Below, piece by piece: positions 32,381 through 49,450 of a stretch of 64,000 bases of DNA. The stretch covers positions 68,720-132,719 of the forward strand of contig JACPUC010000007.1 in NCBI GenBank assembly GCA_016192455.1, written 5' to 3'. The notes beneath the pieces were generated by a model that was not told the DNA's origin, did no database searches, and saw only the letters and a program-made list of their open reading frames with translations. Source of the DNA: Candidatus Tectimicrobiota bacterium. GTDB lineage: Bacteria > JACPUC01. Position 1 is the stretch's first letter. Each line of letters opens with the position of its first letter. A program made the position numbers and the translations under genes.

Positions 32381-32432
32381 GACGGCTCTGCCGAGAAGGG
32401 CGCCGCGGCTGAAAAGGTAGAATGGGGGGAAC

Positions 32433-33708: not shown

Positions 33709-33735
33709 CGTGGTTCCAGACTCGTGGTTCCAGAC
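33709..33735. repeat. tandem direct repeat CGTGGTTCCAGAC x2 (14-bp period)
   Basis: Read directly, ~110 nt upstream of the gvpJ-like start. A candidate operator. Confidence 0.4.
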
Positions 33736-33843
33736 CACGGGACCCGACACGGCAGGCGAAGCCGACAGGGGGTGTTCCCGGCCCGCGCGGGGGGTGATCT
33801 CAACGCCCACACCACGCGCCCCTGGCGCCCACCAAGGAGCTGC

Positions 33844-34152
33844 ATGGAAACCGCGCCAATAACGAGCATCTCGCACTCGACCGGGGCGGTGACGCTCGCG
33901 GACATCTTGGAGCGAGTCCTCGACAAGGGAATCGTCATTGCCGGCGACATCAGCATCTCGCTGGCTGACGTGCAGCTCCTGACGATCAGGATTCGGCTGC
34001 TCATCGCCTCTGTCGACAAGGCGCGGGAGATGGGCATCTCCTGGTGGGAAGGCGACGGCTTCCTCTCCTCGAAGGCGCGCGAGATCGAGGCGGAGAACCG
34101 CGACTTGAAGGCGCGTCTCGCCCGGCTCGAGGAGGGTTGCAACGCCTCCTGA
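33844..34152 (+). CDS. gvpJ: GvpA-family gas vesicle protein with C-terminal extension (GvpJ-like)
   Basis: ATG after AAGGAG RBS. LADILERVLDKGIVIAGDISISLADVQLLTIRIRLLIASVDKAREMGI is the GvpA/J core. A ~40-aa coiled-coil tail follows. Confidence 0.8.
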   Translation: METAPITSISHSTGAVTLADILERVLDKGIVIAGDISISLADVQLLTIRIRLLIASVDKAREMGISWWEGDGFLSSKAREIEAENRDLKARLARLEEGCNAS

Positions 34153-34344
34153 GCAGGGGCGTTGGAGGTTCCTCCCGCGGCGGGAGGAGCAGGTCCTCCT
34201 CGGCGGGGCGAGGGGCGTGGTGAGAGGTCGGCAGGAGCGGCGCGGAGCACACACAGCCGGCGCGGTAGGCCGGCAGGAGGCAGCAAGACGACACGGCTGC
34301 CGCTGTCTTCACGAGGCAGGAGTCAAGCCAGGGAGAGCGTCACG

Positions 34345-35499
34345 ATGGCGATCGAGGAGTTTCCCACACTCTTGGCGCCGCGGCAGGCGGATGGGTTTGT
34401 CGAGACGGCGTACGTCCGCGACCTCAGCACGCGCAGTCTCGCTGCCATTGAAGCCGGTTTCCCCATTCACTTCCGCGGCGTCTCCGGCAGCGGCAAGACG
34501 ACGCTGGCGATGCACGTGGCCTCCAAGGTCGGCAGGCCGGTGGTCCTCTTGCACGGCAACGAAGAGCTGAGCACGTCGGAGCTGATCGGCGGCGAACAGG
34601 GCTACCGCTTCCGCCGCGTGGTCGACCGCTTCATTCACTCGGTGCTGAAGACCGAGGAAGACCTCACGAAGCACTGGGTCGACAACCGGCTCACCATCGC
34701 CTGCAAGCACGGCTTCACCCTCGTTTACGACGAGTTCAGCCGCTCGCGCCCCGAGGCCAACAACATCCTTCTCTCCATCCTGCAGGAGAAGATTCTCGAC
34801 CTGCCGATGCTGCGAGGCCACGAGCACTACCTGAAGGTGCACCCCAACTTCACCGCCATCTTCACCAGCAACCCCGAGGACTATGCCGGCGTCTTCAAGA
34901 CGCAGGACGCCTTGCGTGACCGCATGATCACCTTCGACCTCGACTTCTTCGACCGCGCCACGGAGGCGGCGATCAGCCAGGCCAAGTCCGGCCTGCCGCT
35001 CGGCGCGGTGGAACGCATCGTCGACCTCGTGCAAGGGTTTCGACAAAGCCAGCAGTACGACTTCGCCCCCACGGTGCGGGCCTGCATCATGATCGCCAAG
35101 CTGACGCGCGTGCGCGGCGCCTCGGCGGCCGCCAACGACCCGGTGTTCCGCCAAATCTGCGCCGACGTGCTCATTTCGGAAACGAGCCGGGTGGGTCTGC
35201 ACGGCAAGAGATTGAAGGTCGATCAGATGCTGGCGCGCCTGATCGACAGGCACTGCGCGGCGGCGCCGCAGGCGAGCCAAGCGAGGAAGAGCTCTCCAGC
35301 CTCTCTCGGTCCCGAGGCGCAGAGCATGGCGGCGAACGGCCCCTCCTCGAGCAGTAGCGGTGGCTTGCAGGAGAACCGGAACCCGACCCGAGGCGCGGGG
35401 GCAAACGCACCAGCGGGACTCTGGCAGCGGCGACAGGGTGAGCCGGTTGCCCCAGCCTCGGCAGGCAATCAGGCGCCCGGCACGCACCGCCACGTTTAG
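34345..35499 (+). CDS. gvpN: gas vesicle AAA+ ATPase GvpN (CbbQ/NorQ family)
   Basis: ATG after AGGGAGAG. Walker A FRGVSGSGKTT, Walker B LVYDEFSRS, and AAA sensor regions. Typical GvpN size. Confidence 0.85.
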   Translation: MAIEEFPTLLAPRQADGFVETAYVRDLSTRSLAAIEAGFPIHFRGVSGSGKTTLAMHVASKVGRPVVLLHGNEELSTSELIGGEQGYRFRRVVDRFIHSVLKTEEDLTKHWVDNRLTIACKHGFTLVYDEFSRSRPEANNILLSILQEKILDLPMLRGHEHYLKVHPNFTAIFTSNPEDYAGVFKTQDALRDRMITFDLDFFDRATEAAISQAKSGLPLGAVERIVDLVQGFRQSQQYDFAPTVRACIMIAKLTRVRGASAAANDPVFRQICADVLISETSRVGLHGKRLKVDQMLARLIDRHCAAAPQASQARKSSPASLGPEAQSMAANGPSSSSSGGLQENRNPTRGAGANAPAGLWQRRQGEPVAPASAGNQAPGTHRHV

Positions 35500-35523
35500 G
35501 AAACCAGCAGGAGAACGTTCACC

Positions 35524-35829
35524 ATGAAGGGCCTCGCGGATCTCAAAACCGCTCGACACGTGAAGATGCGGGGTATGCCGCAGGTCGCGCAGTCTCCGCC
35601 CATCGAACTCTTCATGCTCGGCAAGCAGAAGGAGCGCCTGGAGAAGGAAGAGCAGCAGCTCCTGAAAGCCTTGCAGCGCACGCAGCACACCCTGCGACAC
35701 CTGGCGCAGCGCCTGGAGAGCCTGCGGCAGGAGATCGCCAGGGAAGGCGGCGGCGCCGCGAACGCCGAGCCAGCAGCAGGAGAGCCGCACGGCACGCGCG
35801 GCTGGCAGACGATGCCGTTAACCTACTGA
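35524..35829 (+). CDS. small coiled-coil protein (paralog of 37204..37401)
   Basis: [39 protein letters not shown] is a heptad-rich helix. It shares a QKER-L...L motif with the ORF at 37204. Confidence 0.4.
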
Positions 35830-35995
35830 GCCGTTGCGGAGCCTTGCACTCTCGAAGCGCAGGCAGGCGTCGGAGCGTAACCAAGACGAACGAGCACGCC
35901 GCACGGAGTGCGTGCGGAAACGTGGCAAAGGCATCGGTGTGGGGAGGCCACACAACTCTCAGGAGACTGAGAACCACCTTTGGAGGAATCGAATC

Positions 35996-36211
35996 ATGGC
36001 AGTCGAAAAAGCAATCGGGTCATCGAGCCTGGTCGAAGTGGTCGACCGCATCCTGGACAAGGGCATCGTCATCGACGCCTGGGTGAGAGTCTCCCTCGTG
36101 GGGATCGAGCTCCTGGCAATCGAAGCCCGCGTCGTCGTCGCGGGTGTCGACACGTATCTGAAGTACGCCGAGGCCATCGGCCTGACGGCCACGGCCGCCG
36201 CGCCCGCGTAG
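35996..36211 (+). CDS. gvpA: major gas vesicle structural protein GvpA
   Basis: [63 protein letters not shown] is nearly identical to canonical cyanobacterial GvpA. A GGAGG RBS lies 9 nt upstream. Confidence 0.9.
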
Positions 36212-36258
36212 CGGGTGGCCCATCTTCCTGGACGCCGCCCGCGGGCGCAGGCGAGGGG

Positions 36259-36338
36259 GGGTTAGGCACTGCGGTTTCCCCCACCGATTCCCAGGTTCGG
36301 GTCCACTTTGCAGGATCAACCCGAGCACTGCCTAACCC
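36259..36338. repeat. long-range inverted repeat GGGTTAGGCACTGC / GCACTGCCTAACCC (14-bp arms, 1 mismatch, 52-nt loop) downstream of gvpA
   Basis: Read directly 48 nt after the gvpA stop. No T-tract follows. Possible terminator or processing structure. Confidence 0.45.
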
Positions 36339-36401
36339 GTTATCGAAGCGCTCCGCGGGGGCGTTGAGGTCGAGGCGCGGTTCTGCTGCCGCCGCCAACG
36401 G

Positions 36402-36426
36402 GGAACATGTTCCACGTGGAACATTC
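36402..36426. promoter_or_regulatory. overlapping perfect palindromes GGAACATGTTCC and GTTCCACGTGGAAC (three alternating GGAAC half-sites)
   Basis: Read directly in the gvpA-gvpH intergenic region. A candidate protein-binding site. Confidence 0.4.
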
Positions 36427-36587
36427 GCCCGGCGGCGGCAGGCCCGCCGCGTCCTAAAGGTCCGGTCGGGCGGCAGGCTGCCGTTCCCGGAGCCGACGGT
36501 CCGCCCCGGGCGGCCGGCATGGACGCCGGCGCCTCATTCGTTCATCCCGCACCGATCCAGGTGCCATGGCAAGAAGGAGACCGGCTG

Positions 36588-37139
36588 ATGAGTCGGCGCA
36601 AGACGAGCGGCCCAGCGGGGCTCGGTGGCGTCTTCAAGGGTATCGCCTCGTTCATCGACCTCCTCGTTGACCTCACCGAGGAGGGTGCAGGCAAAGAGGA
36701 GGACAGCACCGAGGAGGGCAAGGGGATCAAGCGGTCGCGGGAGTTCCGCGGCGCCACGGCGAGCGGCAAAGAGTTTCGCGGCGTGTACGGGTTTTCGGTG
36801 CGGATGGGACTGGGCGGGCCGGAGGTGGAGACGTTCGGCAACCTCCACCCCGCCGACGAGGGCGCCGTGGTGGAGGAACGCCGCGAGCCCCTGGTCGACG
36901 TCTTCGATGAGGGGCAAAGCCTGCAGGTGGTGGTGGAGCTGCCGGGGGTGGAGGAGGAGAGCATTGATGTTCGCCTCGCCGACGATGTCCTCATCCTCTC
37001 CACCGAGCGCGGCGCCCGCAAGTACTACAAGGAGGTGCTGCTGCCCGCGCCGGTGGAGGCGCAGAGCCTGGTCCGCACCTACCGCAACGGCATCTTCGAG
37101 GTGCGCCTGCAGAAGCGAGCCGAGCCGCCGCGGGAGTGA
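36588..37139 (+). CDS. Hsp20/alpha-crystallin family small heat-shock protein (GvpH-like)
   Basis: ATG after AAGGAGA. Alpha-crystallin domain VDVFDEGQSLQVVVELPGVEEESIDVRLADDVLILSTERG...GIFEVRL. Confidence 0.8.
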   Translation: MSRRKTSGPAGLGGVFKGIASFIDLLVDLTEEGAGKEEDSTEEGKGIKRSREFRGATASGKEFRGVYGFSVRMGLGGPEVETFGNLHPADEGAVVEERREPLVDVFDEGQSLQVVVELPGVEEESIDVRLADDVLILSTERGARKYYKEVLLPAPVEAQSLVRTYRNGIFEVRLQKRAEPPRE

Positions 37140-37613: not shown

Positions 37614-39779
37614 TCACGTTGACCGATCACTAGCGCCACGCCGCCAAGGGCGCAGCGCCTCGTCGAAGTGGCGCCCGGAGATGCGCAAGGAGCCAGCCCC
37701 GTCATCGGCGGCGTTGCGGCCGCGCAGGAATTCCCGCACGGCGCACATCCCGGCCTCGCGGCAGAGGGCCTCAATCTGCGCTCCCTGCCAACCGCTGGTG
37801 GCGAGGACCAGCGCCGCCAGATCGACATCGGCGCTTAGCGGCATGCGGCGGGTGTGCACCTCGAGAATCTCCCGCCGCCCCTCATCATCCAGGGGCCCCA
37901 CCTCGAGCTGCAGGTCGAAGCGCCCGGAGCGCAGCAGCGCCGGATCGACCATATCAATGCGGTTCGTGGTGGCCAGGACGATCACCCCCTTCTGGCTCTC
38001 GATGCCGTCAAGCTCGGTAAGGAGCTGGCTGACCACCCGCTCGGTGACGCCGGCGCTCTCGCCGTGCCCGCGCACCGGCGCCAGGGCGTCGATCTCATCG
38101 AAGAAGAGGATGCACGGCGCCGCCTGCCGGGCTTTGCGGAAGAGCTCCCGCACGCCCCGCTCCGCCTCGCCCACCCACTTGGAGATGAGCTCCGGCCCCT
38201 TCACGGAGATGAAGTTGATCTGGCACTCCGTGGCGACGGCCTTCGCCAGCAGGGTCTTGCCGCAGCCGGGAGGGCCGTAGATGAGGATGCCCTTCGGAGG
38301 GCGCAGGTGCGCCTCCTCGAACAGCCGCCGGTGGCGCAGCGGCCACTCGATGTTCTCCTGCAACCACTGTTTCGTCGCCGCCAGGCCACCCACATCGTCC
38401 CAGCTCACGTTCGGCACCTCAAGGGAGACCTCCCGCAAGCCCGAGGGCTCGACCTCCCGCAGGGCCGCCAGGAAGTCGTCGCGCCCCACCCGCAGATCGA
38501 GGAGCTCCTCGTAGGGGATGCGCTGGCTCTCAAAGTCGACCCGCGGCAGGAGGCGGCGCAGGGCCACCATGGCGGCTTCGCGGCAGAGGGCCTGGAGATC
38601 GGCGCCGACGAAGCCAAGGGTGAGCTGGGCGAACTCCTGCAGGTCCACCTCCTCGGAGAGCGGCATGCCGCGGGTGTGGATCTCGAGGATACGCTGGCGC
38701 CCGGTGGTGTCGGGCACGCCGATGACGAGCTCGCGGTCGAACCTCCCCGGGCGGCGCAGGGCCGGGTCGAGGGCGTTCGGGATGTTCGTGGCGCCGATCA
38801 CGATCACCTGGCCGCGCTCGCGCAGACCGTCCATGAGCGCTAGAAGCTGCGCCACGACGCGCTTCTCCACCTCGCCGATGGCCGTCTCCCGCTTCGGCGC
38901 GATGGCATCAATCTCATCCAGGAAGAGGATGCTGGGCGCCTGCTTGCTTGCCTCGTCGAAGAGCTTGCGCAGCTTCGCCTCGCTCTCGCCGTAGAACTTG
39001 TGGATGACCTCCGGCCCGTTGACCGCGAGGAAGTGGGCTTCGGTCTCGTGCGCCACGGCGCGGGCGATGAGGGTCTTGCCGCAGCCCGGCGGGCCGACCA
39101 GGAGCACGCCCTTGGGGGCGTCGATGCCAAGGCGCTCGAAGACCTGCGGGTGCTTCAACGGCAGCTCGATCATCTCGCGGATGCGCTGCACCTCCCGCCC
39201 CAGGCCGCCGATGTCGTCATACGTCGTCTTTGCCGGGCTGGGACGCGCTCCTTTCTCGTGGGCGATACTGAGAACGGTGGTGGGGTGCACCACCACGGCG
39301 CCGTCCGGGATCGTCTCGGCGACGAGGAAGTCATAGGAGCGCGCCCCGAAAAGGTTGGCCCGCACCGTATCCCCCCTGGTCACCGGCAGGCCCTCCATGA
39401 GGCGCACCAGGTAGCGGTGATCGCGCTCCGACAGGGGGCTGCGCAGAAGCGTGCGCGGGTTCAGCGTGATCTTGGCGGCGGCCTGGCAGGCGGTTTTCTC
39501 CACCAGCACCTTCTCGTCCAGCCCCACCTTGGCGTTGCCGCGCACCAGGCCATCGATCTGCACCAGGCGCTGGCCGCGCTCGGCGGCAAAGGCCGGCATC
39601 GCCTTCGCCACGGTCTGCTGCTTGCCCGTAATGCGCACGACATCGCCCACCGCCACATCGAGCTCCTTCATATCCGCCGGATCGAGGCGGGCGATGCCGC
39701 GGCCGACATCCTTGGAATGCGCCTCCACAACACGGAGCTGCAAGCTGGCCTGGGGTTCGGCCTCGGGCGCCATACTCAT
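37614..39779 (-). CDS. Cdc48/VCP/VAT-like double AAA+ ATPase
   Basis: N-terminal double-psi/Cdc48 domain, then two AAA modules, each with Walker A GPPGCGKT, Walker B DEID and second-region-of-homology motifs. Convergent with the gvp operon. Confidence 0.85.
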   Translation of the reverse strand: MSMAPEAEPQASLQLRVVEAHSKDVGRGIARLDPADMKELDVAVGDVVRITGKQQTVAKAMPAFAAERGQRLVQIDGLVRGNAKVGLDEKVLVEKTACQAAAKITLNPRTLLRSPLSERDHRYLVRLMEGLPVTRGDTVRANLFGARSYDFLVAETIPDGAVVVHPTTVLSIAHEKGARPSPAKTTYDDIGGLGREVQRIREMIELPLKHPQVFERLGIDAPKGVLLVGPPGCGKTLIARAVAHETEAHFLAVNGPEVIHKFYGESEAKLRKLFDEASKQAPSILFLDEIDAIAPKRETAIGEVEKRVVAQLLALMDGLRERGQVIVIGATNIPNALDPALRRPGRFDRELVIGVPDTTGRQRILEIHTRGMPLSEEVDLQEFAQLTLGFVGADLQALCREAAMVALRRLLPRVDFESQRIPYEELLDLRVGRDDFLAALREVEPSGLREVSLEVPNVSWDDVGGLAATKQWLQENIEWPLRHRRLFEEAHLRPPKGILIYGPPGCGKTLLAKAVATECQINFISVKGPELISKWVGEAERGVRELFRKARQAAPCILFFDEIDALAPVRGHGESAGVTERVVSQLLTELDGIESQKGVIVLATTNRIDMVDPALLRSGRFDLQLEVGPLDDEGRREILEVHTRRMPLSADVDLAALVLATSGWQGAQIEALCREAGMCAVREFLRGRNAADDGAGSLRISGRHFDEALRPWRRGASDRST

Positions 39780-39915
39780 CTCCTTTCGCGGTACTCCGCT
39801 CCACCTGCCGAGCTGTCCTGGAATCAACAGCCGAACGGCCGGCTCGCGCCCGCGACACGGGGAGGTGCAGCGAGGCGAGTCGCGCTCCGGCAGCGGCCGG
39901 CGCGCTCGCCGCGGT

Positions 39916-41430
39916 TCAGGCGCCGTTCCTTGTCACCGCCAGGCAGCGGCTCGACCAGGTGCAGCGCTGGGCGCTCTCGTCATCGCAGAGACGCACCGTC
40001 TGAGTCCTCTGCAGCGTCTGGTAGAGCTTCTTGCGATCAATCTTCAGGAGGCGCGCGGCGGCGGACTTGTTGTTGCTCGTCGCCTGCAGCGTCGCCGCCA
40101 CCACCTGGTGAGCAAAGCTCTCCAGGAGGTCGTTCAAGGTCGCCCCCTGGCTGAGAGTTCGCAGTTGGCTGGCAAGGTTGAAGGCCTCGGTGCAGGGGAC
40201 CGGCGCTCCACCGCCATTCGTCGAGGGCTCCGCCGACGTGGCGGACTTCGTGGCATCGAAGGTGATCGCCGCGGCTTCGACGCGCTCCCCAGCGGCAAAG
40301 AGAACCGCCCGCCGCACGATGTTGAAGAGCTCGCGGACATTGCCGGGATAGTCGTAGCCGCGCAGCAGGGCCAGAGCTTCCGGCGTGATGCTGTGGACGT
40401 TGCGCTGCAACTCCTGGGCGGCCTCCGCGATGAAGCGCTCGACAAGGTAGGGGAGGTCTTCCTTGCGATCGCGCAGCGGCGGCACCTCGATGGTGAACTC
40501 GCTGAGGCGATGGTAGAGGTCGAGGCGGAAGCCGCTGCGCTTCACCTCGGCCGGCAGATCGAGGTTCGAAGAGGCGACGACGCGCAGATCAACCGGCACC
40601 ACCGTGGTGGACCCCAGGGGTTGCACCTCGCGCTCCTGGAGGGCGCGCAGCAGCTTCGCCTGCATGCCGTAGCCGAGGTTTGAAATCTCGTCCAGGAAGA
40701 GGGTGCCGCCGTGCGCCCTCACGAAGGCGCCCTGCTTGGCTCGATCAGCGCCGGTGAAGGCGCCTTTCTCGTGACCGAACAACTCGCTCTCCAGCAGCGA
40801 TTCGGGGATGCCGCCGCAGTCGAGGGCCACGAAGGGGCCGCTGCGCCAGGGGCTGCGATGGTGGATGGTGCGGGCCACGACCTCCTTGCCGACGCCGCTC
40901 TCGCCACAAATCAGGACGGAGAGCTTCGAGGACGCCACCACCTCGAGTTGCCGGTGCAGGCGTTGCACGGCCGGCCCATGCCCCATCATCTTGCAGAGGT
41001 GATCGACGTGCACCCACCCTTCCTGGAGGGACTCGAGGTGCTGGACCCGGCGCACGTGCTCGGTCGCTTTCTGCAGGCGCTGCACGAGGTCCTTGTTATC
41101 GAAGGGTTTCGTCACGTAGTCGTAGGCGCCGAGCTTCATGGCCTCGACGGCGGAGGTGACGCTGGCATGGCCGGTGATCACCAGCACCGGCATCCACGGC
41201 GATTGATCCAGGAGTCGCTTCAGCAGCTCGAGGCCCTTGATGTCCGGCAGCACGAGGTCGAGGAAGACGATGTCCGGCTTCTCTTCCGCCAGGCGCGCCA
41301 GGGCCTGGCTGCCGTCCTGGGCCACAATGGCGCGGCCTGCCGAGCGCTTGACGAGCTCGCTGAGGACCCAGCGCGTCTCGGCTGAATCATCAACGATGAG
41401 GACCGTGGTGAGTGCTTCGCTGCGGTGCAT
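39916..41430 (-). CDS. sigma54-dependent NtrC-family response regulator (REC-AAA-HTH)
   Basis: Receiver VLIVDDSAE...D in FLDLVLPD. Sigma54 activator motifs GESGVGKE and GAFTGA. C-terminal Fis-type HTH AAARLLKIDRKKLYQ. Confidence 0.85.
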   Translation of the reverse strand: MHRSEALTTVLIVDDSAETRWVLSELVKRSAGRAIVAQDGSQALARLAEEKPDIVFLDLVLPDIKGLELLKRLLDQSPWMPVLVITGHASVTSAVEAMKLGAYDYVTKPFDNKDLVQRLQKATEHVRRVQHLESLQEGWVHVDHLCKMMGHGPAVQRLHRQLEVVASSKLSVLICGESGVGKEVVARTIHHRSPWRSGPFVALDCGGIPESLLESELFGHEKGAFTGADRAKQGAFVRAHGGTLFLDEISNLGYGMQAKLLRALQEREVQPLGSTTVVPVDLRVVASSNLDLPAEVKRSGFRLDLYHRLSEFTIEVPPLRDRKEDLPYLVERFIAEAAQELQRNVHSITPEALALLRGYDYPGNVRELFNIVRRAVLFAAGERVEAAAITFDATKSATSAEPSTNGGGAPVPCTEAFNLASQLRTLSQGATLNDLLESFAHQVVAATLQATSNNKSAAARLLKIDRKKLYQTLQRTQTVRLCDDESAQRCTWSSRCLAVTRNGA

Positions 41431-41818
41431 GAACCGGCTCCCCCCGTAGAATCCTCCGCACTAGGCGCCGCACCTCTTGGATGTCGAAGGGTTTTTCCAA
41501 GAAGGTGGCGATGGTTCCGCTTTCCACGCTCTTTCGTACGATCGGGTCGTCGCGGTAGAAGTAGCCGGAGACAAGGATGGCGATGGTCTGCAATCCCTGT
41601 TCGCGCAGCAGGGCGCAAAGATGAAGTCCTTCCATGTCCGGCAGCTTGGCATCGATGAACATCAGCCCAACCGTGTGCCTGCTCAGCAGGGCCAAGGCCT
41701 CGCTCCCCCGCAGCACGCTCTCCACGCGGCACCCCTCCGGCTCCAGCACGGTGCGCAGCACCCAACACATGTCGGGGTCGTCGTCAACGATGAGCACGAT
41801 CGGCGTCGCCTGCGTCAT
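41390..41818 (-). CDS. stand-alone response-regulator receiver protein
   Basis: From Met MTQATPIVLIVDDD. Asp in LMFIDAKLPD and conserved K in LEKP. Overlaps the downstream activator gene by 41 nt. Confidence 0.75.
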   Translation of the reverse strand: MTQATPIVLIVDDDPDMCWVLRTVLEPEGCRVESVLRGSEALALLSRHTVGLMFIDAKLPDMEGLHLCALLREQGLQTIAILVSGYFYRDDPIVRKSVESGTIATFLEKPFDIQEVRRLVRRILRGEPVHAPQRSTHHGPHR

Positions 41819-41870
41819 GGCTGTCTCAGGTCCTTGCCAGGTTGCGAAGAGCTTCCGGGCCCACCCGAAG

Positions 41871-43361
41871 CTAAGGTTCCAGCGGCAGCTCGACCTCAAA
41901 GGTTGAGCCGCTGCCTACTTCGCTCGTCACGTGGATGCAGCCCCCCATCTGCTTCACGATGCTGTAGCTCACCGACAGGCCAAGCCCCGTCCCCTGCCCT
42001 ACCGGCTGGGTGGTGAAGAAGGGGTCGAAGATGCGGCTGAGGTTTTCGCGCGGGATGCCGCAACCCTGGTCGGTGAAGGAGACGAGCACACTGCGGCGCT
42101 CCCCTCCCGTCTTGCAGCGTGTGGCGACCAGCAGCTCGCCTCCTCCCTCTCGCATGGCGTTCACCGCGTTCAGCGTGATGTTCAGGAAGACCTGCTGCAG
42201 CAGGTTCTTGATGCCGCGGACGCGCAGGGACTGCTTGCCATAGCGCTTCACCAAGGTGATCTGCGACAGGATCAACTGATTGCTCACCAGGCTGACGATC
42301 TCATCGAGGCTTGCCTCGAGCGGAAATACCTCGAAGGCGCCGCTCGACGGCCGGGCGAAGCGCAGGAGGTTTTCGATGATGCGCGAGGCCTGCGCGATGT
42401 TCGTGTAGATCTTCTGCGCGGCTTCCTTGCGGAACTGCCCGTCGCCGTGGTCATCGAGCAGAAGCTGGGCGGCCGAGGAGCTGACGGCCAGGGGGTTGCG
42501 AATCTCGTGCGCGATGCCTCCCGCCATCACCCCCATGGCCGCCATCTTCGCCGTTTGGATGAGCTGCGCCTCCATGCGCTTGCGCTCCGTCAAGTCGCGT
42601 CCCACCGCCACGATGCCGCTGAGGTGGCCCGTATCGTCGCGCAGGGCGGAGAACGACCAGGAGACGGGCAGCCGCTGGCCCTTGCTGTCGCGCAGGTCGA
42701 TCTGCAGGTCGCGCTGCGGCGCCCCCAGCGCCAGCGCCCGGAAGGCCCGCTCCATCTTCTCGACCTCGCTCTCGTCGACGCACAGGCTCATCACCTTGAT
42801 GCCCCGCAGCGCCCGCGGCTTGTAGCCGGAGATCTCCTCGGCGGCCTTGTTCCAGGTCTGGATGGTGCCGTCGGGCGTGGCCGAGAAGATAATGTCGGTG
42901 ACGCTCTCGACGGCGCTGGCCCAGTGCCGCCAGGCGGAGCGCACCTCCGCCCCCAGGCGTTCCTTCTCCGTGATATCCTCCAGCAGGAGCATCACCAGGG
43001 AGGGTCGCGCGCCCTCCTCCAGGAGAGGAATGACGAGGTAGTAGTAGACCGTCGCCGCAATGCCCGGCGCCTTGTAGGTGAGCTTCCCCTCGCGCACGCA
43101 GTCGCCGTCGCTGAAGCTGTTCTGGACTTTGCCGATGAGGTCGGTGGACTCGGAGAAGACGCGCGGAAACACCTCCTCGATGCGCCGCCCCAGCACATCC
43201 TTGGCGTGCTGGCGCGACTTCTTCAGAAAATTCCGATTCGCCTCCAGAACCTTCAAGTTGGCGTCGAGGATGAAGATGGAGAACGGCACCGTCTCCAGGA
43301 TCGCTTCGTAGAGGCGCTTGTACGAGATGCCGGGAAGGACCTCGGTTCCATTCATGTCCAT
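41871..43361 (-). CDS. PAS-domain sensor histidine kinase
   Basis: Two PAS modules, H-box GIAHEIRNPL, N/G boxes NAVNAM...DQGCGIP...GTGLGLS. Confidence 0.85.
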   Translation of the reverse strand: MDMNGTEVLPGISYKRLYEAILETVPFSIFILDANLKVLEANRNFLKKSRQHAKDVLGRRIEEVFPRVFSESTDLIGKVQNSFSDGDCVREGKLTYKAPGIAATVYYYLVIPLLEEGARPSLVMLLLEDITEKERLGAEVRSAWRHWASAVESVTDIIFSATPDGTIQTWNKAAEEISGYKPRALRGIKVMSLCVDESEVEKMERAFRALALGAPQRDLQIDLRDSKGQRLPVSWSFSALRDDTGHLSGIVAVGRDLTERKRMEAQLIQTAKMAAMGVMAGGIAHEIRNPLAVSSSAAQLLLDDHGDGQFRKEAAQKIYTNIAQASRIIENLLRFARPSSGAFEVFPLEASLDEIVSLVSNQLILSQITLVKRYGKQSLRVRGIKNLLQQVFLNITLNAVNAMREGGGELLVATRCKTGGERRSVLVSFTDQGCGIPRENLSRIFDPFFTTQPVGQGTGLGLSVSYSIVKQMGGCIHVTSEVGSGSTFEVELPLEP

Positions 43362-43848
43362 GTCGCGGGTGCTCCCTGTGCGGGGCGGGCGGCGTGTTGA
43401 GGCGCGGCGGTTCCGGCCGTTGCGGCCGAGCCAGCCGCGCCCTGCTTATCCAGCAGGGCGGCGCGACGGGGCGGCTTGCAGGCAGTCCCGCCGCCGCGCC
43501 GCCCAGACGTTAGGTTGTGTGCCTGTAACAAAGCAATATTATATTGTAAAAGAGAATTGTCAATCCTACGTTTGAACATGATGAAGTATCTCCGCCTTAA
43601 CTCGTGGCGCGCCGCCTGGTCGCGTTGCTCGTGACGAGTCGTGATGCGGGCAGCGCAGCTCGCTCCCGGCGTGGCGCAAGCACCTCCGCCGGGGGAGCTT
43701 TCTTTGCCAACGGGACAGCGCGTCTGGGCCGAGGCGACGTTCCGCCTCGTCCGCGCCGCGGGGCTGGCGCCATGGCGGGGCGTTGCCGAGCGGCGGCGGC
43801 GAAGCCACCCGCCCAGGTGGTCTGCCGGCGGGCGCGGCTGAGCAGGCA

Positions 43849-43864
43849 AGGCACGCAACTTGCT
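43849..43864 (+). promoter_or_regulatory. candidate sigma54 (-24/-12) promoter AGGCACGCAACTTGCT
   Basis: Matches TGGCAC-N5-TTGC with exact GG...GC spacing (GG 43850-51, GC 43862-63). Lies 170 nt upstream of the 1804-aa kinase start. An AT-rich island (43530-43600) lies ~300 nt upstream. Confidence 0.5.
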
Positions 43865-44035: not shown

Positions 44036-47000
44036 GTGGAAGAGTCGTCTGCGCCGGCTCAACGAGCAAGTCAAGGGCCACCTGCCTGCGAGGGTGACGG
44101 CGCCCCGGCGGGCGGGGGGCGCGATCACCTTGCGCAGCTCATCGAGGCGGCGGGGGATGTCATTGTTACGGTCAACCCCGACCTGCGCATCACCTTTTGG
44201 AATCGGGCCGCCGGGGCGTTGTACGGCCGCGACGCCGGCTCCATGCTGGGGCAGTCCGTCCTCACCCTGTGGGGGAAGCGGACGCGGGAGGCGCGCGACC
44301 TCCACGCGCGGGTGCTGGCCGGGGAGACGCTGCACGACCTGACGCTGACCTGGCGGAAGCAGGACGGGACGCGCAGCACGCTCCTCTTCAGCCTGTCGCC
44401 GATCCGCGACGCCGCTGGGGCGATCGTCGGCATCCTGGGGGTGGGCCGCGACATCACCCGCCAGCAACTGATCGAACGCGCCCTGCGGCGGCACAATCAG
44501 CAGCTCCTGGCGTTGCAGCGCATCGGCGCCGCCGTCTCCGCGACGCTCAGCCCGCAGAAGTTGTTCCAGCTCATCGTCGAGCATGCCCTGGAGATCCTGG
44601 ACGGGAAGTTTTCCCTCCTGCGGCTGCTGACGCCGAATGGGAAGTTCCTGGCGCTCGTTGCGGGCATCGGCTCGATGGCGCGCCTGGTTAGGCATGTCCC
44701 CGCGCAGGGCAGCTTCGCCGAGGAGACCTTTCAGAGCAGGAGGGGCCTCTGTCTTAGCAGCGGGGAGGCGCAACGCCGCGCGCGGCCACCCTATCAGAGG
44801 ATCCTTGAACAATGGCCGCACCATGTCCTGGTGGCCCCGCTCTTGTTAGGCGAGGAGGCGCTCGGCAGCATCTACGTCGGTCGCGGCGTGGAGCAGCCGC
44901 CGTTTGACGACACCGACCTGGCGCTCCTCGAGCTTCTCTCCACCCAGGCCGCCATCGCCATCCGCAATGCGCGCGAGCATGCGCAGCTCGAGCAGACGGA
45001 AACCAGGTACCGCGAGCTCTACGACAAGGCTCCCGACCTCTACCACACGGTGGACGCGCAGGGGATCATCCTGAGCTGCAACGAAACCTATGCCAACGCT
45101 CTCGGCTATGCGAAAGAGGAGCTCATCGGCGCCTCCTACTTTGACCTCTTGCTGCCGGAGGAGCGCGACGAAGCCCGCCGGGGCGTGGCGAAGACGTTTG
45201 AGGGCGGCACGGCGAGCACGAGCGAGCGCACCTTCGTGCGCAAAGACGGCTCGCTGCTGCCGCTGGAGATCAATGTCCGGCTCATGCCCGATGCCGCCGG
45301 CGGCATGAGTTACTCCTACACGCTCCTGCGCGACATCAGCGAGCGCAAGCGGGTGGAGATCGAGGCTCGCCTGCTGCAGAACTTGACCCAGGCCATCGCC
45401 GCCTGTGATGGGTTCGAGGAAGCGCTGGCGGTGTCGCTCCGAGGCATCTGCGAGGTCACTGGCTGGAGCTATGGCGATGCCTGGGTGCCGCGGGCCGACC
45501 AGTCGGTCCTGGAGCGCAGCCCGGCAAACTTTGTCAGTGCGCCGCGCTTCGAGCGATTCAGAGAGGAGAGTCTCGGCATGACCTTCCCCCCCGGCAAGGG
45601 GGTGCCGGGGCGCGTCTGGGCATCGCGCCAGGCGGAGATCGTGGAAAGCAACCGCGATCTTTCTGACGCCGAGAACCCACGCCTGCCCCTGGCGCGGGAG
45701 CTTGGCCTCGCGGCGGCGGTGGGCATCCCGATTATTGCGGAGAACGACGTCCTCGCCGTCCTCATGTTCGCCATGCGTGAGTTCCAGCCGGAGGACCGCC
45801 GCAAGATCGACCTTGTCTGCGCCGTCGCCACGCAGCTCAGCGCCCTCGTCTTGCGCAAGTGGGCGGAATCGGCCCTGCGGGAGAGTGAAGAGCGCAGCCG
45901 GCAGATCTTTGACACGGCCCTGGACGCCATCGTCACCACCGACGAGCGCGCCATCATCGAGTCGATGAACCCGGCGGCCGAACGCATCTTCGGCTACGCG
46001 GCCGCCGAGGCGCTGGGCAAGAACGTCATCAGCCTCCTCTTGGGCGAGGCCCAGCAGGCGACCGAGGTTGCCGCGCTGAACGAGTATCTGCGCGGCGGCA
46101 AGCCGCCAATCCTCGGCAAGGTGCGGCTGGTTGAGGGCAAGCGCCGCAACGGCGAGACCTTCCCGATGGAGCTGGCGATCACCGAGATGCGCGTCAACGG
46201 CGAGCGCAAGTTCGTCGGCATCGGGCGCGACGTGAGCGAGCGCAACGCGGCGGAGGAGGCGCTGCAGGCGGCCCTGGCGGAGCTGGCGGCGGCGGAGGCC
46301 CGCTACCGCGATCTCTACGATCTTTCCCCCGACCTCTACCACTCGCTGGACGCCGAGGGGGTGATCCTCAACTGCAACGAGACCTACGCCAGGACCCTGG
46401 GCTACAGGAAGGAGGAGCTGATCGGGCGCTGCTTCTTCGATTTCCTCCCCCCAGCCGAGGAGCGGCCGGGCGCGTGGGAGGCGTTCCGCCAGAACGTTGC
46501 GCGACGGCGCCCCGGCGCGGAGGAAATGGGCCGACTCGAGCGCACGCTGCTCCGCCGCGACGGCTCACCGTTGGCAACCGAGGTCAGCTACCGGAACTTC
46601 TACGACGCCGAAGGGAGGTTTGCCCACTCCAACACCGTGCTGCGCGACATCACGGAGCGCACACGGGCCGAGGCGGCTCTGCGTCAGGCGCACGCGCAAC
46701 TCGCCGAAGCGGAGGCCCGCTACCGCGATCTCTACGATCACGCGCCAGACATGTACCACTCGCTGGACGCCAACGGCATGATCCTCACCTGCAACGAGAC
46801 TTACGCCAGGACCCTGGGCTACACGAAAGCGGAGCTCATCGGCCGCTGCTTCTTTGACCTCGTCAGCGCCGAAGAGCGGCAGGAAGCATCCCAATTGTTT
46901 CACCGCAACAGCTCACTGCAGCTTCGCGACCAAGAGGCGACAGGGCGCGACGAGCGCATGCTGATCCGCCGCGATGGTTCGAGGCTGGCGTCCGAGATTA

Positions 47001-49450
47001 ACTTCCGGAACCTCTACGACGCCGAGGGGAGGTTCATCTGCTCGAACACCGTGCTGCGCGACATCACGGAGCGCAAACGGGCCGAGGCGGCGCTGCGCCA
47101 GGCGCATGAGCAGCTCGAAAAGGCGGAAGCGCGCTACCGGGACCTCTACGACCACGCCCCGGACATGTACCTCTCGCTTGACCGCCGCGGCGTCATCGAG
47201 GCCGCCAACACGACGCTCGCCGAGACCCTCGGGTACAGCCGCGAGGAGATCCTCGGCAGCAAGCTCCTCACCTACCTCCAGCCTGAGCATCGTGACGCCG
47301 CCTTGCGCTACTTCCGCAGGCTTCTCGATGGAACCGGAGCTCTGGAGACGGAGTCGCTGCTCCTGCGCCGCGACGGCTCGTGCGTCCCGGTCGAGGTCAG
47401 GGTGCGGCTGGTGCTCGGTGAGGCCGGCAAGGCCGCGCGCATCGACATGATGATCCGCGATGTCACCAAGCGCAAAGAGGCCGAGGAGGCCTTGCAGACG
47501 GCCCTGCGCGAGCTGACGAAGGCGGAGGCGAGCTACCGGGACCTCTACGACCACGCCCCGGACATGCTGCACTCCCTCGATGACCAGGGACGCATCGTCA
47601 ACTGCAACCAGACCTTCTGCGGCGCCGTCGGCTACGCGAAAGAGGAGTTGATCGGCCGCTCCTACCTCGACTTCCTGCCCCCCGGGCAGCGCGAGCTGTC
47701 GTTCAATACCTTTCAGTACAATATCACCCACGGCATTGTCGGCAGTGACCCCGAGAGGCTGTTGGAACGCACCTTCCTGCGCCGCGACGGCTCCACCTTC
47801 GAAGTGGAGCTGCGCTTCCGGAACGACTTTGATGGGCATGGGAAGTTCCTGCGCTCCGATACGATCCTGCGCGACATCAGCACGCGCAAGGAGGCGGAGC
47901 GCGACCGCCAGCGCCTGGCGACCGCCATCGAGTGCGCCGCCGAGAGTGTGACCATCACGGATCCCGCCGGCATCATCTTCTACGTCAACCCCGAGTTCGA
48001 GCGCACCACCGGCTACAGCCGCCAGGAGGCCATCGGCCAGCACTCCCGCATCCTCAAGAGCTTCAACCATGACCGCAGCTTCTACGAGAACCTGTGGCAG
48101 ACCATCACGCGGGGGAACGTCTGGGCCGGTCGCTTCATCAACCGACGGAAAGACGGCGCGATCTACTTCGACCAGGCGACGATCTCGCCGGTCTTCGCCT
48201 CGGACGGCACGATCACGAATTTCGTCAAGGTGGCGCGCGACGTCACCCGCGAGGTGGAGCTGCAGGCGCAGCTTCGCCATGCCGATAAGCTTGCCAGCAT
48301 CGGCACCTTGGCGGCGGGCGCGGCCCACGAGATTCTCAATCCCTCCAACATCATCAGCATGTTCGCGCAACTCCTGCAGAAGAAGCGCGCCGACGATGAC
48401 GAGGTGGCCTCCACGGCGGAGACCATCATCAAGCAGGTGAAGCGCATCGAGAACATCTGCGACTCCTTGCGGCGCTTCTCGCGCTCGGGGACCGGCGAGC
48501 GCGCCACGTTCGACCTCAACGAGCTCATCGAGGAGACGCTGCAGCTTTTGGGCCCCGACCTGCGGCAACAGGAAGTCGCCGTCGTCCGCCAGCTTGATCC
48601 CGAGTTGCCGAAGCTGACGGCCAACCGCGACGAGATCGCCCAGGTGCTCCTCAACCTCTGCACCAATGCCATGGACGCCATGCCCGCGGCCGGGACGTTG
48701 ACCCTGCGCACCGAGTCCTTGAGGGGGGAAGACCGATCCTTGCTGCGCCTGGCGGTGGAAGATACGGGCCACGGCATGTCGGAAGAAGTGCTGAAGCGCA
48801 TCTTTGATCCCTTCTTCACGACAAAGCCGCAAGACTACGGCACCGGCTTGGGACTTTCGATCACCTACGGCATCATCGAAGCGCACCGCGGCACCATTCA
48901 AGTGGTCAGCAAGCCGGAAAAGGGAACGGTCTTCACCATCGAAATCCCCACCGGCGAGGAATCGCGGGAACTTTCGCCGCAGCCGCATTTCGCCGATACC
49001 CTGCGCGAGTTCCAGAACCTGAAGACGGACGCCGCGCAGCTCTACCAGCAGCGCCTGCAGCAGAGCGATGCCCAGCGACCCTTCCAGCTATGCTGGCGCG
49101 CCCTGCACCGCTGCGCCTCGACGCAGCTCCTCATGCTGCAGCGCCTGGAGCGCTGGGCGAAGCTCGCCTCCTTCAGTCTGCCGGCGGATGAGCTGGAGAA
49201 CCTCTCGCCCCAGCTCGGCGAGATGGTGGCGCGGGCGCGGGCGGCCCAGGAGGACATGAGGAGCGCCTCGGGGCAGGACGTGGCCCTGCTGCGGCTTGCC
49301 TACGAGCTGGAGGTGCAAACGAACGAGATGTGCAGCGCGGTGGCCAATCTCTTCCGCCACCGCATGCCGGAGTTTCATGCCCACGTGGCGCGGGCCTTGT
49401 GCAGCCAACTGGAGCTGCTGGCGGAGATGCTGCCACGCTACCTCGACTGA
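44036..49450 (+). CDS. giant multi-PAS/GAF sensor histidine kinase (about 9 PAS, 2 GAF, HisKA-HATPase, C-terminal helical extension)
   Basis: GTG start. Repeated PAS cores, GAF segments, H-box AAGAAHEILNP, HATPase NLCTNAMDAM...DTGHGM...GTGLGLS, plus ~170 aa after the ATPase domain. Confidence 0.85.
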   Translation: MEESSAPAQRASQGPPACEGDGAPAGGGRDHLAQLIEAAGDVIVTVNPDLRITFWNRAAGALYGRDAGSMLGQSVLTLWGKRTREARDLHARVLAGETLHDLTLTWRKQDGTRSTLLFSLSPIRDAAGAIVGILGVGRDITRQQLIERALRRHNQQLLALQRIGAAVSATLSPQKLFQLIVEHALEILDGKFSLLRLLTPNGKFLALVAGIGSMARLVRHVPAQGSFAEETFQSRRGLCLSSGEAQRRARPPYQRILEQWPHHVLVAPLLLGEEALGSIYVGRGVEQPPFDDTDLALLELLSTQAAIAIRNAREHAQLEQTETRYRELYDKAPDLYHTVDAQGIILSCNETYANALGYAKEELIGASYFDLLLPEERDEARRGVAKTFEGGTASTSERTFVRKDGSLLPLEINVRLMPDAAGGMSYSYTLLRDISERKRVEIEARLLQNLTQAIAACDGFEEALAVSLRGICEVTGWSYGDAWVPRADQSVLERSPANFVSAPRFERFREESLGMTFPPGKGVPGRVWASRQAEIVESNRDLSDAENPRLPLARELGLAAAVGIPIIAENDVLAVLMFAMREFQPEDRRKIDLVCAVATQLSALVLRKWAESALRESEERSRQIFDTALDAIVTTDERAIIESMNPAAERIFGYAAAEALGKNVISLLLGEAQQATEVAALNEYLRGGKPPILGKVRLVEGKRRNGETFPMELAITEMRVNGERKFVGIGRDVSERNAAEEALQAALAELAAAEARYRDLYDLSPDLYHSLDAEGVILNCNETYARTLGYRKEELIGRCFFDFLPPAEERPGAWEAFRQNVARRRPGAEEMGRLERTLLRRDGSPLATEVSYRNFYDAEGRFAHSNTVLRDITERTRAEAALRQAHAQLAEAEARYRDLYDHAPDMYHSLDANGMILTCNETYARTLGYTKAELIGRCFFDLVSAEERQEASQLFHRNSSLQLRDQEATGRDERMLIRRDGSRLASEINFRNLYDAEGRFICSNTVLRDITERKRAEAALRQAHEQLEKAEARYRDLYDHAPDMYLSLDRRGVIEAANTTLAETLGYSREEILGSKLLTYLQPEHRDAALRYFRRLLDGTGALETESLLLRRDGSCVPVEVRVRLVLGEAGKAARIDMMIRDVTKRKEAEEALQTALRELTKAEASYRDLYDHAPDMLHSLDDQGRIVNCNQTFCGAVGYAKEELIGRSYLDFLPPGQRELSFNTFQYNITHGIVGSDPERLLERTFLRRDGSTFEVELRFRNDFDGHGKFLRSDTILRDISTRKEAERDRQRLATAIECAAESVTITDPAGIIFYVNPEFERTTGYSRQEAIGQHSRILKSFNHDRSFYENLWQTITRGNVWAGRFINRRKDGAIYFDQATISPVFASDGTITNFVKVARDVTREVELQAQLRHADKLASIGTLAAGAAHEILNPSNIISMFAQLLQKKRADDDEVASTAETIIKQVKRIENICDSLRRFSRSGTGERATFDLNELIEETLQLLGPDLRQQEVAVVRQLDPELPKLTANRDEIAQVLLNLCTNAMDAMPAAGTLTLRTESLRGEDRSLLRLAVEDTGHGMSEEVLKRIFDPFFTTKPQDYGTGLGLSITYGIIEAHRGTIQVVSKPEKGTVFTIEIPTGEESRELSPQPHFADTLREFQNLKTDAAQLYQQRLQQSDAQRPFQLCWRALHRCASTQLLMLQRLERWAKLASFSLPADELENLSPQLGEMVARARAAQEDMRSASGQDVALLRLAYELEVQTNEMCSAVANLFRHRMPEFHAHVARALCSQLELLAEMLPRYLD
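46295..47930 (+). repeat. four tandem in-frame PAS-module repeats (417/414/399-bp periods) inside the kinase gene
   Basis: The 30-mer GCGGAGGCCCGCTACCGCGATCTCTACGATC occurs at 46291-46320 and 46710-46739. Units 1-2 are ~85% identical at DNA level over >150 bp. Units 3-4 share TACCGGGACCTCTACGACCACGCCCCGGACATG. Confidence 0.7.

Follow-up and report, generated by a model that had tools for sequence, protein, structure and literature searches.

The window analysed here, a stretch of 64,000 nucleotides of a Tectomicrobia genome, carries a gas-vesicle (gvp) cluster on the plus strand and, convergent with it, a set of regulatory genes on the minus strand (Table 1). A first-pass annotation had placed an NtrC-type activator, a stand-alone receiver, a PAS histidine kinase and a Cdc48 gene beside the gvp genes, and all four were found there, on the minus strand. 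The regulatory genes directly adjoin the gvp genes, and 142 nt separate the activator gene from the CDC48 gene downstream of it. All ORFs of the locus are intact with high third-position GC, and neither frameshifts nor mobile elements were noticed in it. Rfam and tRNA scans of the 64-kb window gave no matches, and no rpoN was seen among its annotated genes.

Table 1. Coordinates of genes and candidate promoters at the gas-vesicle locus
Feature	Position	Strand	Evidence
Third single-domain receiver	25734..26180	-	Pfam Response_reg
P1, strong sigma-54 -24/-12 candidate at the gvp operon head	26818..26833	+	TGGCCCAACTATTGCT
Co-directional gvp cluster, ArsA-like to Hsp20/GvpH-like, presumed target operon	26925..37139	+	Pfam
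P3, degenerate sigma-54-like match, 57 nt before gvpA	35923..35938	+	TGGCAAAGGCATCGGT, PWM 6.8-6.9
gvpA, major gas-vesicle shell protein	35996..36211	+	tblastn, 84% identity to Anabaena GvpA
CDC48-family double-AAA ATPase, gvpZ position of Serratia-type operon	37614..39773	-	TIGR01243
Sigma-54 enhancer-binding protein, REC-AAA+-HTH_8, 504 aa	39916..41430	-	Pfam Sigma54_activat, 210 bits
GvrC-like single-domain receiver, 142 aa	41390..41818	-	Pfam Response_reg only
PAS-PAS histidine kinase, GvrB-like and cytoplasmic, 496 aa	41871..43361	-	Pfam PAS_4/PAS_9/HisKA/HATPase_c
Sigma-70-type promoter candidate, kinase-receiver-activator(-CDC48) operon	43536..43563	-	TTGACA-16-TAATAT, 10/12 matches
P2, top-scoring sigma-54-like site in the window	43849..43864	+	AGGCACGCAACTTGCT, PWM 15.0
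Giant 8xPAS/2xGAF histidine kinase (1804 aa) and receiver (49478-49924)	44036..49924	+	Pfam

The gvp cluster comprises 16 genes. Its order begins with ArsA/Get3-like, GvpL/F-DnaJ, GvpF, GvpG, GvpO, GvpF/L and a small GvpA-like ORF, and continues with GvpF/L, GvpK, orf, GvpJ-like, GvpN, orf, GvpA and Hsp20/GvpH-like. This order is atypical, with gvpA in 15th and not in first place and the CDC48 gene inverted away from the Hsp20 gene. Neither a sigma-70 consensus nor a convincing plus-strand terminator was found inside the cluster, and RNA structure in the gvpA 5′ region was unremarkable (z = -1.05).

The kinase contains two PAS domains followed by HisKA and HATPase_c, with the H-box HEIRNPL and no N-terminal hydrophobic segment; an identical sequence is present in NCBI, labelled Candidatus Tectomicrobia MAG. 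The receiver gene begins 52 nt past the kinase stop. Its ORF reaches 41899, but the ATG at 41818 is the likely start, and the same 142-aa gene call was found on independent contigs. The kinase belongs to a family of about 492 aa, whose sampled global homologues are 46-52% identical to it and gvp-linked in 4/4 cases (loci L171, L172, L173 of Candidatus Scalindua rubra, and L174), each with a following receiver and an enhancer-binding protein (EBP). A CDC48-based search independently gave five further gvp-linked kinases (42-46% identity), and a scan with the activator gave a sixth (L005); as a control, among 80 arbitrary EBP loci such a kinase was present only in the gvp-linked L005. Because the family recurs in gvp clusters, in the four global homologues and in the six independently found loci, the co-location of kinase and gvp genes is, on comparative grounds, in excess of chance. 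In seven related loci (L005, L126, L142, L171, L172, L173 and L174) the gene next after the kinase encodes a small receiver. In three of these, L005, L172 and L174, the gene order EBP-GvpH-CDC48-GvpF-GvpF-kinase-receiver is the published Serratia order (PMC4982088), and the gvrB position is held by a homologue of the window kinase, 44-47% identical over the full length. These comparisons tie the window kinase and receiver to the Serratia Gvr system.

The CDC48 ORF extends from 37614 to 39827, the ATG at 39773, with the RBS GGAG 6 nt before it, being the likely true start. The protein has CDC48_N, CDC48_2 and two AAA domains in Pfam and scores 911 bits against the TIGR01243 cut-off of 802.65. 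Its best 80 metagenome homologues (57-68% identity) lie near Hsp20/GvpH and/or gvp genes in 76 cases. Judged by this conserved neighbourhood, the gene is a member of the gvp cluster, in the gvpZ position; the first-pass annotation was right that it is adjacent to gvp, but its term "abutting" understates the relation. Since the nature of the GvpZ protein is not stated in the Serratia papers, equating CDC48 with GvpZ is a matter of position.

The activator consists of Response_reg, Sigma54_activat, AAA_lid_14 and HTH_8 domains, with GAFTGA at residues 223-228, a Walker A motif (GESGVGKE), a Walker B motif and the acceptor Asp in FLDL. Its start overlaps the 3′ end of the receiver gene by 41 nt. 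The protein scores below all NCBIfam equivalog cut-offs (NtrC TIGR01818, 402 against 558.6; AtoC NF008469, 368 against 714), and an exact look-up of its sequence returned no identical record. A genome scan gave only paralogues of 35-43% identity among the matches listed, with one syntenic locus (L005), and the closest relatives in a search of 5.8 billion proteins were only 42-46% identical. Of these relatives, the five whose contexts were read are not gvp-linked; their neighbours are unrelated genes, e.g. for cytochromes, PFOR and chemotaxis-like kinases. A first neighbour-joining tree of 99 EBPs had placed the window activator in one clade with all 16 gvp-linked EBPs (bootstrap 42/100). In a later tree with the 60 best global matches added, it no longer grouped with them; because these matches dissolved the clade and the five contexts were not gvp-linked, the clade was rejected as a sampling artefact. 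By its domains and position the activator appears to be the functional counterpart of GvrA, while its sequence does not mark it as a GvrA orthologue.

Candidate sigma-54 promoters were scored with a position weight matrix (PWM) built from a consensus, with a score threshold set after the data had been seen. The window as a whole showed no enrichment (22 consensus matches against 28 expected; 4 sites of PWM >=12 against 4.5 expected), so that the information lies solely in where the best sites fall. Positions suited to a promoter make up 4.7% of the window and include two of its three sites scoring at least 14, both of which flank the locus (p about 0.006 under that post hoc threshold). One is P1, the joint second-best match of the whole window, which has one mismatch to TGGCAC-N5-TTGCW and lies 92 nt upstream of the GTG at 26925, the start of the first gvp-operon gene, which is preceded by the RBS GGAGAGGAG. 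The other is P2, which is intergenic and 172 nt upstream of the giant kinase gene. The first-pass annotation had expected further sigma-54 promoters in the gvp intergenic regions and had proposed a matrix scan of 26100-37400; that scan recovered P1 as the sole plus-strand match of at least 8.2. Over the 11 kb of the gvp region, one strong site, at the operon head, was found where several had been expected, the gvpA-proximal site, P3, being degenerate. P3 lies near the usual place of the gvpA promoter in related clusters (60-95 nt from the ATG), a score of its level has a chance probability of about 0.03 at that position, and L172 and L174 keep a site likewise with GG at -13/-12. No sigma-54 site precedes the CDC48 gene in the PWM scan. 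The sigma-70 candidate is set in an AT-rich island, about 175 nt before the kinase ATG, and is the sole such site in 35400-44200; its 10/12 matches before the regulatory operon, together with the absence of a sigma-70 consensus from the gvp region, mirror the arrangement in Serratia.

A search for a shared activator-site motif in the regions upstream of P1, P2 and P3 gave counts equal to shuffle expectation. P1 and P3 share an upstream 17-mer, CCYGGCGCAGCGSCTGG, at distances of 58 and 207 nt respectively, an unproven lead for which the test is circular; a 9-mer, TGCGTGCGG, at 26226 and 35909 is not above chance.

The proposed three-part system is present in all its parts, but the local network is larger, with a giant PAS kinase and two more receivers. 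The giant kinase and its receiver probably belong to the same network: extra PAS kinases and receivers with their best matches in these window proteins flank many related gvp clusters (L092, L098, L111, L140, L144, L147, L172 and L174). The third receiver (25734-26180) and the gvp operon point away from each other on the two sides of the 745-bp region that contains P1, and homologues of this receiver with 45-48% identity are found inside the gvp clusters of L140, L143, L144 and L150.

Comparison with about 90 environmental gvp clusters revealed that, in related clusters with an EBP and gvpA, a sigma-54 site (PWM 9.9-18.6) is located between the EBP gene and gvpA in 16/16 cases, compared with 1/14 of the related clusters without a visible EBP. 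Family-wide, an activator is associated with a sigma-54 site before gvpA. The sequence of P1 lies inside the range of these 16 sites; gvpA of the window, unlike that of all 16 relatives, has no good proximal site. In L126 and L142 an OmpR-type regulator takes the place of the EBP, and no -24/-12 site is present upstream of gvpA.

Taken together, these data indicate that the locus is probably a Gvr-type gas-vesicle regulatory module, the comparison with Serratia being one of gene order and protein type. The first-pass suggestion of the same three-part logic, with sigma-54 control of buoyancy, is supported by the kinase and receiver comparison and by the site at the gvp operon head. From these features we infer the phosphotransfer partners, the sites bound by the activator, the signal and the firing of the promoters as follows. 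The sigma-70 promoter would transcribe kinase, receiver and activator, and possibly CDC48. The soluble PAS-PAS kinase would sense an intracellular cue; gas-vesicle genes of Serratia respond to low oxygen. It would then autophosphorylate on the H-box histidine and pass the phosphate to the receiver domain of the activator and/or to the stand-alone receiver. The phosphorylated activator would oligomerise, bind upstream DNA via its Fis-type HTH and, through the GAFTGA loop, remodel sigma-54 RNA polymerase at P1, switching on the 10-kb gvp operon that ends with gvpA and the Hsp20/GvpH-like gene. P3 may add output specific to gvpA, and P2 may put a second sensor, the giant kinase, under the same control.

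It is unlikely that the kinase-receiver-activator operon regulates other genes, such as the giant kinase operon or distant sigma-54 regulons, and adjoins gvp only through shared kinase-receiver ancestry. Such a role would fit the position of P2, the best site of the window, before the giant kinase and not before a gvp gene, the unrelated genes adjoining the activator's nearest sequence relatives, and the want of a good -24/-12 element close to gvpA. However, P1 stands at the gvp operon head with no other promoter consensus there, the activator gene overlaps translationally with a gvp-linked receiver gene and is close upstream of the gvp-cluster CDC48, and EBP, gvp genes and a sigma-54 site before gvpA occur together in 16/16 relatives. 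We give still less weight to the possibility that P1 is a chance match and that unrecognised promoters of another type, not dependent on sigma-54, account for most transcription of the gvp operon, the module tuning only its own operon and CDC48 or acting post-transcriptionally via the receivers. Chance alone would give about one site of PWM >=14 in 64 kb, the consensus scan lacks overall enrichment, the sigma-70 and sigma-54 consensus used may not be that of this phylum, and four internal gvp gaps of >150 nt could hide promoters; against this, a correctly oriented site of PWM >=14 has a chance of about 0.01 of landing in the 745-bp pre-operon region, P1 is in sequence within the range of the relatives' sites, and the CDC48 gene has no preceding sigma-54 site.

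The atypical gene order and the degenerate gvpA-proximal site might also be taken as signs of a rearranged, decaying or silent relic in which the regulators no longer work with the gvp genes. The intact ORFs with high third-position GC, the conserved catalytic motifs and the lack of visible frameshifts or mobile elements in the locus make this very improbable.

The finding is right, though for the most part ordinary: the module looks like another Gvr copy, in a new phylum and with a rearranged operon, and it opens no new biological question. It extends the Serratia-type control logic to an uncultured non-proteobacterial phylum; the papers searched included none on gas vesicles in Tectomicrobia, nor any on sigma-54 and gas vesicles beyond the Serratia work. 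Regulators that come with mined gvp clusters get in the way of acoustic-reporter engineering in practice (PMC10344784), and the promoter and regulator coordinates given here may be useful for expressing or switching this cluster. The comparison of about 90 clusters also suggests a simple rule: where the cluster has an activator, gvpA would be preceded by a -24/-12 promoter, and where it has an OmpR-type regulator, there would be none. A broader reading, which we regard as tentative and rather doubtful, is that gas-vesicle clusters across phyla (Tectomicrobia, Planctomycetota/Scalindua, delta- and gamma-proteobacteria) share a sensing core, the double-PAS kinase of about 492 aa and its receiver, while the output regulator is interchangeable, being in some clusters a sigma-54 activator, drawn from more than one lineage, and in others an OmpR-type protein, with the gvpA promoter type to match, and that the giant kinase is also activator-driven. 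If so, the activator would drive the giant 8-PAS kinase from a sigma-54 promoter in a feed-forward sensory cascade for buoyancy.

Among known systems, haloarchaeal GvpD/GvpE are likewise cluster-encoded regulators of gvp transcription, but they are unrelated in protein type and in mechanism, which relies on a bZIP-like activator and its antagonist and involves neither two-component signalling nor sigma-54. NtrB/NtrC and AtoS/AtoC share with the window an activator of REC-AAA+(GAFTGA)-Fis HTH type paired with a HisKA/HATPase kinase, and NtrC/AtoC and AtoS are the best NCBIfam similarities of the window pair. The scores, however, are far under the equivalog cut-offs (402<559, 368<714 and 256<646), the operon contains no nitrogen or acetoacetate genes, and the kinase is soluble and double-PAS. 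The environmental clusters L126 and L142 have the same kinase family (45-46% identity) and following receiver as the window, both directly upstream of gvpA, but their output regulator is REC + Trans_reg_C and not a sigma-54 activator.

The closest parallel is the Gvr system of Serratia sp. ATCC 39006 (Ramsay et al. 2011; Tashiro et al. 2016, PMC4982088). GvrA (NtrC-like), GvrB (kinase) and GvrC (CheY-like) are each needed there for full gvpA1 expression, in agreement with the first-pass annotation's statement that gas vesicles require them; a sigma-54 promoter has been mapped for gvpA1, and that of gvrA is of the sigma-70 type (PMC4982088). The window differs in that its sigma-54 site precedes the ArsA-like first gene and not gvpA, in its two more receivers and giant PAS kinase, in its host, which belongs to Tectomicrobia and not Proteobacteria, and in having no known quorum-sensing link. 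Its order of kinase, receiver, activator and CDC48 on the minus strand, with the Hsp20 and GvpF genes on the plus strand, does not match the Serratia gene layout, which the literature describes as usual and not defining. In both systems the gas-vesicle cluster carries genes for an NtrC-type sigma-54 activator, a sensor kinase and a CheY-like receiver together with gvpH-, gvpZ-position and gvpF-type genes, and the receiver immediately follows the kinase. The promoters, which in the window are predicted ones, are likewise of the same two types, -24/-12 for the structural operon and sigma-70 for the regulatory one.

The first-pass annotation had placed four genes beside the gvp cluster, and Pfam matches and third-position GC (the window has a GC content of 66%) confirmed all four as coding genes at those coordinates, on the reverse strand. 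The features of the region are listed in the table. The activator, a sigma-54 enhancer-binding protein (EBP), has GAFTGA at 223-228, the Walker A motif GESGVGKE and the acceptor Asp, and the kinase has the H-box HEIRNPL and is without a membrane segment. The receiver likely begins at 41818 (ATG; 142 aa), a call shared by independent contigs; for the CDC48 gene the best choice is the ATG at 39773, with GGAG in front. The activator scored below every NCBIfam equivalog cut-off (NtrC, 402 against 559; AtoC, 368 against 714) and is not NtrC or AtoC proper; the nearest family for the kinase was AtoS, also below cut-off (256 against 646).

Features of the gvp locus and its regulatory region in the window
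Feature	Position	Strand	Remarks
Left single-domain receiver	25734-26180	-	Divergent from gvp operon; 745-bp gap to first gene
P1, sigma-54-like site before gvp operon	26818-26833	+	TGGCCCAACTATTGCT; 92 nt before RBS-preceded GTG of first operon gene
gvp cluster	26925-37139	+	ArsA/Get3-like ATPase first, Hsp20/GvpH-like protein last
ArsA/Get3/TRC40-family ATPase	26925-27908	+	First gene of gvp operon
GvpL/GvpF with fused C-terminal DnaJ (J) domain	27944-29059	+	
Small third GvpA-like stretch, GvpS/M-like	about 31438-31590	+	Between two GvpF/L genes
P3, sigma-54-like site before gvpA	57 nt from gvpA ATG	+	TGGCAAAGGCATCGGT; PWM 6.8-6.9
GvpA proper	35996-36211	+	84% identity to Anabaena GvpA
CDC48-family gene	ORF 37614-39827	-	CDC48_N/CDC48_2 and two AAA (Pfam)
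Sigma-54 activator	39916-41430	-	Response_reg, Sigma54_activat, AAA_lid_14 and HTH_8 (Pfam)
Single-domain receiver	ORF 41390-41899	-	Response_reg alone (Pfam)
PAS histidine kinase	41871-43361	-	Two PAS, HisKA and HATPase_c (Pfam)
Sigma-70-type element of regulatory operon	43563-43536	-	TTGACA-16-TAATAT; 10/12 matches
P2, sigma-54-like site before giant kinase	43849-43864	+	AGGCACGCAACTTGCT; 172 nt before giant kinase; best sigma-54-like site of the window
Giant histidine kinase and receiver	44036-49924	+	Kinase 1804 aa; eight PAS and two GAF
Sigma-54-like site	49934-49949	-	TGGAACTCTGCTTGCT; PWM 14.2; 10 nt past receiver stop, antisense into receiver gene

A global search placed the window kinase in a large family of double-PAS kinases, about 492 aa long, whose members are 46-52% identical to it; an NCBI protein from a Candidatus Tectomicrobia bacterium MAG matches it exactly. 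Four members were picked for context by longer surrounding sequence or named source, and all four (at related loci L171, L172, L174 and, from Candidatus Scalindua rubra, L173) were found in gvp clusters, with a small receiver directly after the kinase and a sigma-54 activator in each cluster. Five further gvp-linked kinases (42-46% identity) were reached by the independent route of the CDC48 search and a sixth, L005, was recovered by the activator scan; as a control, among the 80 arbitrary EBP loci listed in the genome scan such a kinase was found only in L005, which is gvp-linked. This linkage of kinase and receiver to gvp is the strongest link of the window to GvrB and GvrC, the sensor kinase and CheY-like receiver of the gas-vesicle cluster of Serratia sp. 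ATCC 39006. In L173 (an anammox planctomycete; MAYW01000009.1), the EBP-kinase-receiver trio adjoins gvpA/gvpN. In L171, the EBP-kinase-receiver-gvpA cluster is directly preceded by a gene for a sigma-70-family sigma factor (690-1427), and an Hsp70 gene is located at the distal end.

Judged from sequence comparison, the tie of the activator to GvrA, the NtrC-like activator of Serratia, appears to be weaker. Its closest proteins in a search of 5.8 billion were only 42-46% identical, and gvp linkage was seen in none of the five contexts read for its nearest relatives. In an initial NJ tree, one clade of 19 held all 16 gvp-linked EBPs, that of the window among them (bootstrap 42/100); with the 60 best global matches added, the window activator grouped with non-gvp EBPs, and the clade was therefore rejected as a sampling artefact. 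The same GvrB-like kinase and receiver were also found with an OmpR-type regulator (REC and Trans_reg_C) in L126 (2905-3705) and L142 (2006-2707), and in L086 (2721-3665) and L087 (4186-4923) the third gene codes for REC-HisKA in place of the sigma-54 activator. The output regulator therefore appears to be exchangeable. On the boldest reading, which we consider less likely than not, gvp clusters would share a conserved kinase-receiver core to which different output regulators, each with its own promoter type, can be joined.

The CDC48 protein was scanned against metagenomes, and among the best 80 loci (57-68% identity) Hsp20/GvpH and/or gvp genes were present at 76 and explicit Gvp matches at 64; the gene directly upstream of CDC48 was usually Hsp20. 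The CDC48 gene of the window is a gvp-cluster gene. L005, L172 and L174 share the order EBP-GvpH-CDC48-(x)-GvpF-GvpF-kinase-receiver. Equating CDC48 with GvpZ would be a positional match, the literature found giving no fold for GvpZ.

Sigma-54 sites were scored with a PWM that we built from the published consensus YTGGCACGrNNNTTGCW, with approximate weights. In all 16 EBP-containing relatives with gvpA, the interval from the EBP gene to gvpA holds a -24/-12 site (PWM 9.9-18.6). Its distance to the gvpA ATG is 60-95 nt in most loci; it is further upstream in L111, L133, L157 and L161, in three of these ahead of a gene for a small receiver preceding gvpA, and 141 and 288 nt upstream in L098 and L173, respectively. 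Another sigma-54-like site is located upstream of the EBP gene in L173. Clusters without a visible EBP had such a site in 1 of 14 cases (L134, short flank), a contrast that is indicative and not a formal test, since the threshold was set after inspection and the search span differed in these clusters. In the two OmpR-type clusters (L126 and L142), no -24/-12 site was found before gvpA. These data indicate that, family-wide, an EBP in the cluster goes with a -24/-12 site before gvpA.

In the window, a search for TGGCAC-N5-TTGCW that allowed up to two mismatches showed no enrichment (22 versus 28 expected), and the self-built PWM gave 4 sites at ≥12 (4.5 expected under a first-order Markov model) and 3 at ≥14 (1.1 expected). 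Their positions are informative: two of the three top sites fall within the 4.7% of positions suited to promoters, i.e. intergenic, co-oriented and <300 nt from a gene start (p about 0.006). These two are P1 and P2, which flank the gvp regulatory locus; the third, TGGAACTCTGCTTGCT, may be a chance match or an antisense promoter. Sigma-54 promoters had been expected in the gvp intergenic regions, and the scan of 26100-37400 bore this out at the head of the operon with the strong candidate P1, the only plus-strand match above 8.1, while before gvpA only the degenerate P3 was found. P3 lies near the distance typical of the relatives (alone marginal, p about 0.03), and its non-canonical GG at -13/-12 recurs in the conserved site of L172 and L174. 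A search for activator binding found no motif common to the upstream regions of P1, P2 and P3 above chance; a dyad at 26744-26760 is a candidate upstream site. No sigma-70 consensus was found in the gvp region. About 175 nt before the kinase ATG, within an AT-rich island, lies the sigma-70-type element of the regulatory operon, the sole such site in 8.8 kb. The giant kinase and its receiver are transcribed divergently from this operon, and the final ~165 residues of the kinase have no Pfam match. In the divergent intergenic region, two opposed sigma-54-like elements (43851-43863 and 43898-43910) form an inverted repeat, GCACGCAACTTGC / GCAAGGGGCGTGC, with predicted starts facing each other about 10 nt apart.

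The gvp genes are arranged in the order ArsA/Get3-like ATPase, GvpL/F-DnaJ fusion, GvpF, GvpG, GvpO, GvpF/L, small GvpA-like ORF, GvpF/L, GvpK, a coiled-coil ORF without assignment, GvpJ-like, GvpN, an unassigned ORF, GvpA proper and Hsp20/GvpH-like; GvpA proper is 15th in the cluster and not first. The small GvpA-like stretch overlaps the mechanically listed start of an ORF at 31505. Many environmental gvp clusters have an ArsA-like homologue beside CDC48 (e.g. L098, L144, L172 and L174), in some cases tandem-duplicated into a 658-aa protein, and the GvpL/GvpF-DnaJ fusion also occurs in the unrelated metagenome cluster L171 (8683-9642). The best homologues of the left receiver (45-48%) are encoded between the Hsp20 and GvpL-DnaJ genes of other gvp clusters (L140, L143, L144 and L150); this receiver is flanked by haem biosynthesis genes (21602-25490) for a protoporphyrinogen oxidase-like protein (amine-oxidase-type), uroporphyrinogen decarboxylase and ferrochelatase. 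Both components of a Gabija anti-phage system are encoded in a low-GC island (about 0.55 versus 0.66) at 12189-15789 (+): GajA is an OLD-type ATPase/TOPRIM protein (PADLOC, 755 bits) and GajB a UvrD-like helicase (660 bits).

We propose that kinase, receiver and activator, perhaps with CDC48, would be transcribed by sigma-70, and that an intracellular cue would be sensed through the PAS domains of the kinase. Phosphate would be passed to the activator and/or the receiver, and activator oligomers would, via GAFTGA, open the sigma-54 holoenzyme at P1 and possibly at P3 and P2; CDC48 and Hsp20 may serve as assembly chaperones. The module may instead control targets other than gvp, as suggested by the rank of P2 as best site and by the activator's relatives outside gvp clusters. 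P1 may also be a chance match, with gvp driven by other promoters, or the rearranged gvp cluster may be silent. The ties at operon level, the pattern seen across the family and the fact that the ORFs are intact and codon-biased argue against all three.

In Serratia, 5'-RACE mapped a -24/-12 site ahead of the structural genes and a -35/-10 site ahead of the regulators (PMC4982088); likewise, in the window a -24/-12 candidate precedes the gvp genes and a -35/-10 candidate the regulators. The window module probably works like Serratia Gvr, and the three-part likeness to GvrA/B/C drawn by the first-pass annotation holds in structure and in the gvp linkage of kinase and receiver, but not in the usual operon layout, which the window lacks. 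Tashiro et al. (PMC4982088) had already reported gvrA/B/C from several clusters of beta-, gamma- and delta-proteobacteria, and the window system therefore belongs to a known kind. Our literature search found no paper joining Tectomicrobia and gas vesicles; compared with the known Gvr systems, what is new here is the phylum, the reshuffled operon and the larger sensory periphery.
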